A DNA stretch of 64,000 nucleotides, taken from Dictyostelium discoideum. Taxonomy: Eukaryota. The notes under the pieces are model-generated. The model searched no databases and had not been told where the DNA came from. It worked only from the letters and a program-made list of their open reading frames with translations. A program made the position numbers and the translations under genes. Below, one piece after another: positions 20,601 through 23,142 of the stretch. How positions within the stretch are numbered: position 1 is the stretch's first letter; each line of letters opens with the position of its first letter. Location of the stretch: contig CM000152.2 in the NCBI GenBank assembly GCA_000004695.1, positions 3,712,001-3,776,000 of the forward strand. The letters run 5' to 3'.

Positions 20601-21417
20601 AAATTCATCAATTGATAATTCAGTAACAACTCCTTCAAAATCTTTATTACGATTATTAAACTCTAGTAAAAGTAATAATAATAGTAATAATAAAAAAGAA
20701 AAACAGTGTAATTATAATAGAGAAGGAGAAGATGATGAAGGAAGAGGAGAGGAACAAAAAGAAAAAGAAGAAGAAAAAGAAGATGAAGATTTTCCAAATA
20801 TAATAACAAATGATATAGCGTATATTTTATTATCAAAATCAATTGCAAAATCAATTGAAAGTGAATCATGTTTACATGGTACAACTCAAGAGACAATGTT
20901 AATTTTTACCGATATTGTTAGTTCATTTATTGGTAAAATTGGAAAATTATTTAATAAATATTATTCAAATAATGGTTTACCAAATAATAAATCAACAACA
21001 ACCCAAACAACACCAACAACACAATTACAACCGCCGCCACCACCACCATCATTATCATTACCTCCATCCCTTTTATTAAATTCAATTGTTACAGATATTT
21101 TTGGTGATAGTTTAGGTATATTATTATTAAAAGATTATATGATTAAAAAATCCAAAAATCAACAAATCTATGATGACCCTTTGTTTGAATTAGAGGTGGA
21201 GTTTGAAAATGATCATTTACAATCTGATAATATTTTACAAAATAATAATGGGGATATTGATATCAATGAATCTATGGAAATTGATATCCTTGGTGAAGAT
21301 GATATCATTGATATAGATGATACAGTTAACACCATCACTACCACCACCACAACAACTACTACTTTCTCTTACAATACCAACAAGAAAAGAAAATTACCAA
21401 ATGAAAAGGAAAACTAG
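17649..21417 (+). CDS. Large bromodomain-containing chromatin protein. Exon 1 is 17649..18818 and exon 2 is 18985..21417. The frame stays open after a single TAG; see findings.
   Basis: The bromodomain core '[61 protein letters not shown]' ends at a GTAAGT donor at 18819. After a 166-nt A/AAT intron with an AG at 18983-18984, exon 2 resumes in phase 0 with 'SGKVYVEHANKMEKK', completing the bromodomain ZA/BC helices. The rest is coiled-coil and low-complexity (polyQ, polyN, polyT, acidic) sequence. Confidence 0.75.
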
Positions 21418-23142
21418 GGTTTATTTGGTCATTACCCAAGATACATTGAAGAACCTGCTGAAATTACATTGTTCATTGATCCAAAACCTATACAAAAACC
21501 AACAACAAACACAACAACTAATAATAATAATAATAATAATAATAATAATAATAATAATAATAATAATAATAATAATAATAATAATAATAATAATAATAAT
21601 AATAATAATAATAATAATAATAATAATAATAATAATAATAATAATAGTAATAGTAATAATAATAATAATAATAATAATAGTAATAGTAATAATAATAATA
21701 ATAATAATAATAATAATAATAATAATAATAATAATAATAATAATAATAATAATAATAATAATAATAATAATAATAATAATAATAATAATAGTATTAATAA
21801 TAATAACCACAATAATAATAATAACAACAACAATAATATTAATAATAATAATAATAATAATAATAATAATAATAATAATAATAATAATAATAATAATATT
21901 AATAATAACAACAACAATAATATTAATAATAATAATAATAATATTAATAATTATAATAATAATTATAATAATAATAATAATAATAATAATAATAATAATA
22001 ATAACAACAACAACAACAACAATAATAATAATAATAATAATTATCCAAAACCAATTCAAGCATCAACACAAACAGGTAATTTAGGAATTCAACAACAATT
22101 ACAACAGCAACAATTACATCAATTACAACAACAACAACAATTACAACAGCAGTATCAAATTCAACAACAACAATTACATTTACAACAACAACAACAACAA
22201 CAACAACAACTTAAACTACAACAAATTCAATTTCAACAAATGCAACAACAACAACAACAACAACAACTACAACAACAAACAAGACAACCATCTCAACCAC
22301 AAACACCTCAAATGCAATCACAACCTCAAACACCTCAAATATTATCACAACCACAACAACAATTACAACAATTACAACAACAACAACTACAACAGCAACA
22401 ACAACTTCAGCAACAACAACTTCAACAGCAACAGTTGTTTCAACAACAACAACAACAACAACAACAACAACAACAACAGCAACAACAACAACAACAACAA
22501 CAACAACAACAACAACAATTACTACACCCACAGCAAATGCAAATACAACAAAATTTACAACAACCACTTCAACAAATACAACAACAACAACAAATACAAC
22601 AACAGCAGCAGCAGCAACTTCAACAACAACAACAACAACAACAACAACAACAACAACAACAACAACAACAACAACAACAACAACAACAACAACAACAACA
22701 ACAACAACACCATCAGCAACTTCAACAGCTTCAACCACAGCAACAGCAACAGCTTCAACAACTTCAACCACAGCAACTTCAACAACTTCAACAGCTTCAA
22801 CAGCTTCAACAACTTCAACAACTTCAACAACTTCAACCACAGCAACTTCAACAACTTCAACAACTTCAACAACTTCAACCACAGCAACTTCAACAACCAC
22901 AACAACTTCAACCACAACAACTTCAACAACAACAACTTCAACAACAACAACAACCTCAACAGCAACAACAACAACCACAACAACAGCCACAACAACAACC
23001 ACAACAGCAACAACAACCTCAATATCAAACCACATTCCAATCTATTGCAAGCCCAGTATCAACGGCCAATAACAAATACACCTTCATTATCATCTTCTAC
23101 AACAGGAACTGCGAATACCTCAACCTCTTCATCATCAAATAA
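21418..23142 (+). CDS. Low-complexity poly-Asn / poly-Gln coding-like ORF in the same frame as the bromodomain gene. It has no ATG of its own and is most likely a continuation of that gene.
   Basis: The frame is open immediately after the TAG at 21415-21417. It has typical D. discoideum coding repeats, (AAT)n of about 520 bp and (CAA)n polyQ, and there is no in-frame ATG for about 270 codons. Confidence 0.35.
   Translation, partial: GLFGHYPRYIEEPAEITLFIDPKPIQKPTTNTTTNNNNNNNNNNNNNNNNNNNNNNNNNNNNNNNNNNNNNNNNNNSNSNNNNNNNNSNSNNNNNNNNNNNNNNNNNNNNNNNNNNNNNNNNNNSINNNNHNNNNNNNNNINNNNNNNNNNNNNNNNNNNINNNNNNNINNNNNNINNYNNNYNNNNNNNNNNNNNNNNNNNNNNNNNYPKPIQASTQTGNLGIQQQLQQQQLHQLQQQQQLQQQYQIQQQQLHLQQQQQQQQQLKLQQIQFQQMQQQQQQQQLQQQTRQPSQPQTPQMQSQPQTPQILSQPQQQLQQLQQQQLQQQQQLQQQQLQQQQLFQQQQQQQQQQQQQQQQQQQQQQQQQQLLHPQQMQIQQNLQQPLQQIQQQQQIQQQQQQQLQQQQQQQQQQQQQQQQQQQQQQQQQQQQQHHQQLQQLQPQQQQQLQQLQPQQLQQLQQLQQLQQLQQLQQLQPQQLQQLQQLQQLQPQQLQQPQQLQPQQLQQQQLQQQQQPQQQQQQPQQQPQQQPQQQQQPQYQTTFQSIASPVSTANNKYTFIIIFYNRNCEYLNLFIIK

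Follow-up and report, generated by a model that had tools for sequence, protein, structure and literature searches.

Does a bromodomain gene on chromosome 3 of Dictyostelium discoideum end at an in-frame TAG, or does it run on, through that stop and a later shift of frame, to a C-terminal AT-hook? The gene lies at 17649-23545 of a stretch of 64,000 nucleotides (nt) that we analysed as a whole and call the window (GenBank assembly GCA_000004695.1, contig CM000152.2, positions 3,712,001 to 3,776,000 of the forward strand); positions are counted from its first letter. A sequence-only reading of the window had noted that the bromodomain open reading frame (ORF) ends at TAG 21415-21417 and that the same frame then stays open to 23142. 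A tabulation of stops in the three forward frames agrees with this. Between the stop in intron 1 (18982) and 23140, the only stops in frame 1 (mod3=1) are TAG 21415-21417 and TAA 23140-23142, leaving 574 stop-free codons after the TAG. The same reading had proposed one gene of about 1,900 amino acids (aa) with a bromodomain, an AT-hook, a nonsense codon and a frame shift, and this proposal is borne out by three orthologues that are uninterrupted across both positions. We favour a single gene with one real intron, whose product would be about 1,909 aa long when read without the breaks, and in which both breaks are errors of the reference sequence. We give this reading a probability of roughly 0.55.

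Under this reading, the TAG and the one-base shift at about 23020-23080 would be defects of the reference sequence and not features of gene structure or recoding. They would most likely have arisen in base calling or assembly, in a stretch that was poorly covered and has long AAT and CAA repeats on its flanks. The intact protein would consist of an N-terminal coiled region, a bromodomain, a histone-fold-like domain, an acidic linker, a GLFG...SLFxD motif, poly-N/poly-Q tracts, a K/E-rich block and a C-terminal AT-hook. The part of the conceptual un-bridged protein that spans or follows the TAG reads YIEEPAEITLFIDPKPIQK.

The region itself is not new. Bromodomain and AT-hook parts already belong to a single annotated gene, dictyBase DDB_G0280777, whose published span of 5,897 nt (chr3:3729649-3735545) corresponds exactly, from ATG to stop, to window positions 17649-23545. 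A phosphoproteomics supplement lists DDB0220698 (DDB_G0280777) as a bromodomain protein at chromosome 3 position 3729649 to 3735545 (PMC6397043). The offset of 3,712,000 between the two numberings is supported by two independent checks, S553 falling on an SPR motif and a curator-made 'tiny intron' falling on a run of seven A (see below). S553 is the chemoattractant-responsive ErkB-motif phosphosite of DDB_G0280777 (PMC6397043). It corresponds to TCA CCT CGT at 19471-19479, in SPISPRE, an [S/T]PR site, only when intron 18819-18984 is spliced. Since this phosphosite was reported there, the upstream part of the protein is expressed. No peptide evidence for the tail was found in the supplement, where S553, upstream of the TAG, was the only site (PMC6397043). 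Considering that the public span joins bromodomain and AT-hook in one gene, the public model must bridge both breaks.

Orthologues were found by an exhaustive HMMER search with 20470-21414 as the query and were named by cluster look-up. They come from three species, Polysphondylium violaceum (KAF2076619.1, 1,417 aa), Tieghemostelium lacteum (KYQ92136.1, 1,275 aa) and Acytostelium subglobosum (XP_012751474.1, 1,123 aa). A profile search added none, as the protein collections contain no entries for D. discoideum, D. purpureum, Heterostelium or Cavenderia. An exact look-up accordingly matched neither the bridged models nor a single-exon control gene of the window, which carries no weight against the models, and a DNA-pattern scan of metagenomes and a protein scan turned up no D. 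discoideum or close relative. Word-index searches with junction and bromodomain queries missed the P. violaceum and T. lacteum proteins despite 29 identical consecutive residues. An Acanthamoeba bromodomain match lies at a contig end and has no C-terminus.

All three orthologues are colinear with the conceptual protein of the window, from LDDVYYSLEYD to KKKRGRP(H/Q)KK, and hold every module in one protein. The shared order starts with LDDVYYSLEYD, the bromodomain, a conserved FFPE.TH..NS.P block, the histone-fold-like segment, LLLKDY and the acidic linker. This is followed by GLFG..P.H..E....SLF.D, a Q-rich region, an S/T-rich region, a basic block rich in K/E or K/S, and finally (P)EKKKRGRPHKK, which stands a few residues before the stop in the orthologues. 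KKKRGRP.KK is invariant in all four species and adjoins the stop. Positions that are invariant among the orthologues are largely kept in D. discoideum, with 9 of 11 retained in the GLFG motif and 8 of 10 in the AT-hook. Unlike D. discoideum, none of the three has a stop before GLFG or a frame shift before the S-rich and KEKEK block. They also lack the poly-Asn tract of 173 codons, and their Q tracts are much shorter.

No intron, stop or shift was found at either D. discoideum break position in the three orthologue loci. The T. lacteum gene is a single intronless ORF of 1,275 codons, the A. subglobosum gene has the bromodomain intron only, and the P. violaceum gene has the bromodomain intron and a second one just before the AT-hook. 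In P. violaceum and A. subglobosum, the exon that runs from the histone fold to the basic block is uninterrupted. The bromodomain intron follows NTDP at the same position in D. discoideum (18819-18984), P. violaceum (locus L002, about 4341-4407) and A. subglobosum (locus L004, about 3871-3887), and has been lost in T. lacteum (locus L003). The second P. violaceum intron (137 nt, L002 7249-7385, GTATGT...ATATAG) separates PEK from KKRGRPHKK, which makes the AT-hook a tiny last exon; it is found in none of the other three species.

Since the orthologues fuse bromodomain and AT-hook in one protein, the two belong to one ancestral protein. This refutes the reading of the region as two genes, a bromodomain gene ending at the TAG and an independent Q-rich/AT-hook gene downstream, which we consider hardly conceivable. 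Such a downstream gene could start at one of the in-frame ATGs at 22240, 22312 and 22537, which contradict the sequence-only statement that the frame after the TAG holds no ATG, and the 520-nt AAT tract has an AT content like that of intergenic DNA. However, the conserved coding GLFG motif sits between the TAG and the AAT tract, the parts are fused in one ORF in three of three orthologues, and the downstream gene would still hold the frame shift. No orthologue ends at the position of the TAG with a separate ATG-initiated gene behind it.

At the TAG itself, the aligned residue is I, M or E in the orthologues, a variable position directly before the invariant GLFG. Similarity to the orthologues continues across it in the same frame. 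In tblastn searches of the window, P0003 matched 21406-21498 (frame 1, E=1e-6) and P0004 matched 20812-21516 in one high-scoring segment pair (HSP; frame 1), both crossing the TAG, and P0007 matched 21418-21486 directly after it (frame 1, E=5e-5). The identity to the orthologues in the GLFG motif was 52-58%.

Codon usage points the same way. With 13 other long ORFs of the window as the training set, the log-odds for frame 1 were +0.87 to +1.09 before the TAG and +0.73 in 21418-21507 directly after it, and the sequence downstream of the TAG is coding-like, at +0.6 to +1.1. Roughly 85% of the 574-codon stretch consists of triplet repeats (173 AAT-type and 312 Q-rich codons) in which no stop is possible in that frame, and therefore the raw open length overstates the signal. 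The three unique stretches after the TAG (102 codons) stay open in 0.16% of shuffles, and the 134 frame-2 codons after 23140 in 0.006%. For the tail at 23045-23545, none of 50,000 shuffles was free of stops. Overall, the downstream part shows no decay, with motifs kept, the stop in its ancestral place and coding codon usage, which means that the breaks are either artefacts or very young. An ATG ORF of 255 codons at 21317-22084 (frame mod3=2) overlaps the TAG region, with poly-Ile encoded by the AAT tract. This ORF is almost certainly just a shadow of the repeat, and it accounts for the slightly higher score of frame 2 over frame 1 in the log-odds interval 21328-21417.

The second break is less sharply placed. 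Frame 2 (mod3=2) holds no stop from 22085 until the one at 23543-23545, and on ORF grounds alone the shift could be placed anywhere in 22085-23139. The codon log-odds favour frame 1 and then frame 2, with the crossover between 23020 and 23080. This matches the sequence-only placement of a +1 shift around 23040-23080, with frame 2 leading to the AT-hook at 23510-23539. The T. lacteum protein matched the AT-hook tail in frame 2 (tblastn, E=0.004), and the tail in this frame ends ...IPPIEQKKKRGRPQKKQ at the stop. The Pfam AT_hook model did not match the D. discoideum protein, as is common for a motif of 10 residues. A shift inside the CAA repeat was rejected, as the repeat would then be read as AAC codons, giving poly-N interrupted by F, H and S where the orthologues have a Q-rich region. 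Both breaks lie in unique sequence adjoining repeats and neither lies inside them, so the implied suggestion of errors within the trinucleotide repeats does not hold.

How, then, does the public model span the two breaks? We enumerated all GT..AG pairs, and few are able to bridge them. The shortest in-frame bridge over the TAG and a bridge over the shift (Table 1) together give a protein of 1,823 aa, which we take to be the length of UniProt entry Q54UW4. The bridge over the shift uses the only GT near it, close to where the coding signal changes frame. The public gene model appears to hide both breaks behind these two GT..AG 'introns', 21325-21417 and 23056-23221, which are probably the gaps between its exons.

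We judge these bridges to be annotation devices and not introns. Both have GT and AG ends and restore the frame. Dictyostelium introns are marked by extreme A+T richness and a GTAAGT-like donor, and both bridges fail on these two counts (34% and 30% GC against 7.8% in intron 1; GTTAAC and GTATCA against GTAAGT). They also fail as non-coding sequence, with positive in-frame codon log-odds, and have no orthologue intron at the same place. The segment YQRPITNTPSLSSSTTGTANTSTSSSSNKKVSTKPKEKEKEREKEKEKDKEKDKE, encoded within the second bridge, lines up with the orthologues' S-rich and KEKEK block. A bridge over a TAG costs nothing, since the stop codon itself provides an AG at a codon boundary and the GT can come from the closest in-frame Val codon before it (here GTT 21325). 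The sequence-only reading had called both junctions GC-containing and not intron-like, and at 33-36% GC, against 7.8% in intron 18819-18984, this description stands. That intron is the only homology-verified one available for comparison. Automated intron scans of the window were filtered on A+T content and are circular for composition, and we did not rely on them. A short real intron at the shift was also considered, but the nearby GT 23056 and AG 23105 would delimit 50 nt in the wrong phase. Phase-correct introns there are all at least 166 nt long or start far upstream in the Q tract.

The same observations bear on the possibility that the 93-nt and 166-nt segments are real but atypical, exon-like introns ('exitrons'), with an mRNA encoding 1,823 aa and a short isoform when the first is retained. 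Their GT and AG ends and the restoration of one frame would fit this, as would the dictyBase span, which covers the whole region. After the first splice, GLFG would also follow straight on the acidic linker, which is the arrangement in A. subglobosum. Set against this are the GC content and coding codon usage of both segments, which are frame-consistent, the T at position +3 of the donor GTTAAC, the absence of an intron at either place in the three orthologues, and the ease with which a Val codon 5' of any TAG yields such a bridge for free. Moreover, the second splice would remove 55 codons whose aligned counterpart in the orthologues is the S-rich and KEKEK block. We therefore regard exitrons as improbable.

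Programmed recoding, in which read-through of the TAG and then a +1 shift would yield a short and a long isoform from one mRNA, appears very improbable. Coding signal and orthologue homology do continue past both sites, and the TAG is followed by G, as in read-through of the MuLV type. However, the predicted folding of the 106 nt that start at the TAG was no stronger than that of shuffled sequence (minimum free energy (MFE) -10.8 kcal/mol, z = 0.15, with 105 of 200 shuffles folding at least as well) and gave no indication of an RNA structure after the TAG. By inspection, no +1 slippery or hungry-codon motif was recognised in 23040-23080. The orthologues have neither stop nor shift at these sites; at the TAG they carry sense codons (I, M and E), so that the extension is conserved and the stop is not. 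Two different rare events would be needed in one gene, and Dictyostelium read-through is only speculated about in the literature that we found. Stop-codon read-through, which the sequence-only reading had listed as one of three possible causes, thus finds no support.

A related reading, in which the TAG is genuine and used, is also quite unlikely. Here, a short Spt7-like protein would end after the NLS-like KKRKLP, and a long form, made through the 93-nt exitron or by read-through, would add the GLFG motif, a prion-like N/Q domain and the AT-hook. The shift would need a second explanation. If true, D. discoideum would have a genetic equivalent of the truncation at the C-terminus of Spt7 by which SAGA and SLIK/SALSA differ in yeast.

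Errors of the kind that we propose are documented for the AX4 genome. Singh et al. 2017 (PMC5282741) described a reference TAA where 100% of RNA-seq reads give TTA, as well as missing single bases. In DDB_G0279477, two bridged stops and one frame shift occur in one gene, and dictyBase models contain 119 artificial 'tiny introns' of 1-3 bases made by curators (PMC5282741). DDB_G0280777 shares with the published cases clcD (DDB_G0278639) and DDB_G0279477 an in-frame stop and a single-base shift in conserved coding sequence, together with a model that keeps the frame (PMC5282741). Unlike those cases, its bridges would be ordinary-sized GT..AG 'introns' and not gaps of 1-3 bp. The anomaly is most likely a member of this documented class of reference or annotation problems and not new biology.

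One of the 119 listed tiny introns lies in the window, 32 kb from the breaks (chr3:3767173-3767175, window 55173-55175). There, an A7 run at 55168-55175 parts frame-2 coding sequence (...KMEMMKGEYSESNNKTKK) from frame-0 coding sequence (...IPDSGKHPQGGYDFDESLGEDLD...), just upstream of a 1,148-aa ORF at 55278-58721. The frame shift at this run was bridged by dictyBase curators with a 1-bp artificial intron (Parent=DDB0349035; PMC5282741 Additional file 3).

The segment with the two breaks is bracketed by the 520-nt AAT tract, 1 kb of CAA repeats and a poly-A/ATT tract, and its clone coverage is therefore probably poor. The last of these lies straight after the stop, at 23546-23810, where about 45 A are followed by (ATT)n over about 190 nt, which is the coding AAT repeat in reverse complement. 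It forms another hard-to-clone stretch beside the tail.

The main competitor of sequence errors is that the TAG and a one-base insertion are genuine mutations in AX4 or in the NC4/AX3 lineage. Compared with the intact orthologues, the sequence carries one nonsense codon and one frame shift, as a disabled allele would. The protein would be truncated at about 1,200 aa and end ...NKKRKLPNEKEN, without GLFG motif, poly-N/Q tracts and AT-hook, and the 2.1 kb downstream would be a very young dead tail. The sequence as given does contain both lesions, and the truncated product would retain both recognisable domains, the bromodomain and the histone fold. Once a nonsense codon is present, a frame shift 3' of it would be neutral, and this would account for the two lesions in a single gene. 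On the other hand, the absence of decay in the tail means that the lesions would have to be very recent. The mutation rate of D. discoideum is very low, and two independent recent mutations within 1.7 kb are unlikely. Finally, reference errors of exactly these two kinds are documented (PMC5282741). We consider genuine lesions unlikely, though deserving of serious attention.

Several points nevertheless weigh against reference errors. Each break is in unique sequence outside homopolymers, where errors in a Sanger consensus are less frequent, and this position also suits genuine mutation. The TAG is one transition away from CAG or TGG, and GC-to-AT transitions of this type are characteristic of nitrosoguanidine, with which the axenic strains were mutagenised in the course of their history. 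As to the public exons, an alternative pair of bridges of 159 and 100 nt also yields 1,823 aa, with the CAA repeat read as AAC-encoded poly-Asn. DDB_G0280777 is not among the 119 curator-made tiny-intron fixes (PMC5282741). Error and real mutation are separated by prior likelihood only, by which we rank error higher; sequence error is thus the cause that we infer.

Table 1. Features of the DDB_G0280777 region, in window coordinates.
Feature	Position	Strand	Details
Exon 1	17649-18818	+	ATG start, 390 codons; N-terminal LDDVYYSLEYD motif and most of the bromodomain; orthologue tblastn ends exactly at 18818
Bromodomain, split by intron 1	18594-19068	+	Pfam PF00439, residues 316-391; 69-75% identity to orthologues
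Intron 1, genuine	18819-18984	+	166 nt, GTAAGT...TAG, 7.8% GC; after NTDP
Exon 2 to in-frame stop	18985-21414	+	810 codons, frame mod3=1; orthologue HSPs 20170-20607 and 20812-21192
Histone-fold-like (Bromo_TP / Spt7-type) segment DIAYILLSKSIAK...GKIGKLF	20812-20955	+	four-species profile against PDB
Shortest in-frame TAG bridge	21325-21417	+	93 nt, GTTAAC...CTAG, 34% GC; translates as 30 residues before the TAG
In-frame TAG	21415-21417	+	codon directly before the invariant GLFG motif
Conserved motif GLFGHYPRYIEEPAEITLFID	21418-21480	+	3' of the TAG, same frame; GLFG, P, E, LF and D invariant in four of four species
Poly-Asn tract	21520-22038	+	173 codons, 147 AAT
Q-rich tract	22084-23019	+	312 codons: 199 CAA, 26 CAG; orthologues Q-rich here too
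+1 frame-shift zone (one extra base)	23020-23080	+	codon log-odds crossover; short runs CCC 23052-54 and AAA 23074-76 inside
C-terminal tail, frame mod3=2	23045-23545	+	S/T-rich, K/E block 23156-23305, P/S/T-rich, AT-hook, stop
Frame-shift bridge	23056-23221	+	166 nt, GTATCA...AAAGAG, 30% GC; frame 2 encodes YQRPITNTPSLSSSTTGTANTSTSSSSNKKVSTKPKEKEKEREKEKEKDKEKDKE
TAA ending the frame that continues past the TAG	23140-23142	+	
AT-hook KKKRGRPQKK	23510-23539	+	R-G-R-P core with basic flanks; stop TAA 23543-23545

The poly-Asn tract, which the orthologues lack at this place, is flanked by two similar short motifs, DPKPIQKPTT (21481-21510) and YPKPIQASTQ (22042-22070). It looks as though it expanded inside a small duplicated unit.

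We also considered what kind of protein the gene encodes. The bromodomain assignment is secure at the level of sequence (Pfam PF00439, E=2.4e-18, 66.3 bits against a cut-off of 21.7). The predicted histone fold is a weaker assignment. A profile of the four dictyostelid sequences searched against PDB had human SUPT7L as its best match (E=0.03), followed by the TAF8 histone fold and Spt7 (E=0.78). The D. discoideum sequence itself had no Pfam histone-fold match at E<0.1, while the A. subglobosum orthologue carries PF07524 (Bromo_TP) on record. A Syncephalis protein with PF07524 and PF00439 was among the nearest matches outside the dictyostelids. Like fungal Spt7, DDB_G0280777 has a bromodomain followed by a putative histone fold of the Bromo_TP type. 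Conversely, its histone-fold similarity to yeast Spt7 and human SUPT7L is weak (E = 0.03-0.8). Outside dictyostelids, these homology searches turned up neither the GLFG motif nor the poly-N/Q tracts nor the C-terminal AT-hook. Judged from these comparisons, the D. discoideum gene is the orthologue of a predicted dictyostelid Spt7-like chromatin protein. Its likely function would be that of a histone-fold scaffold subunit of a SAGA-type co-activator, to which the dictyostelid-specific GLFG motif and terminal AT-hook may add DNA or partner contacts.

The main value of these results lies in annotation hygiene, since either the public 1,823-aa model probably mis-describes the protein or the Spt7-like gene of AX4 is truncated. 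If the breaks are errors, the protein is in truth about 1,909 aa long, and the public model drops 31 codons (30 residues and the TAG) before the GLFG motif as well as 55 residues from the S-rich and K/E block, which is conserved, and numbers all later residues wrongly. If the breaks are real, AX4, the standard laboratory strain, would lack the conserved C-terminal third of a putative Spt7-like SAGA scaffold, AT-hook included, which would be relevant to work on chromatin or transcription in this strain. Beyond D. discoideum, the comparison defines a dictyostelid-specific Spt7-like architecture with a GLFG...SLFxD motif and a terminal AT-hook.

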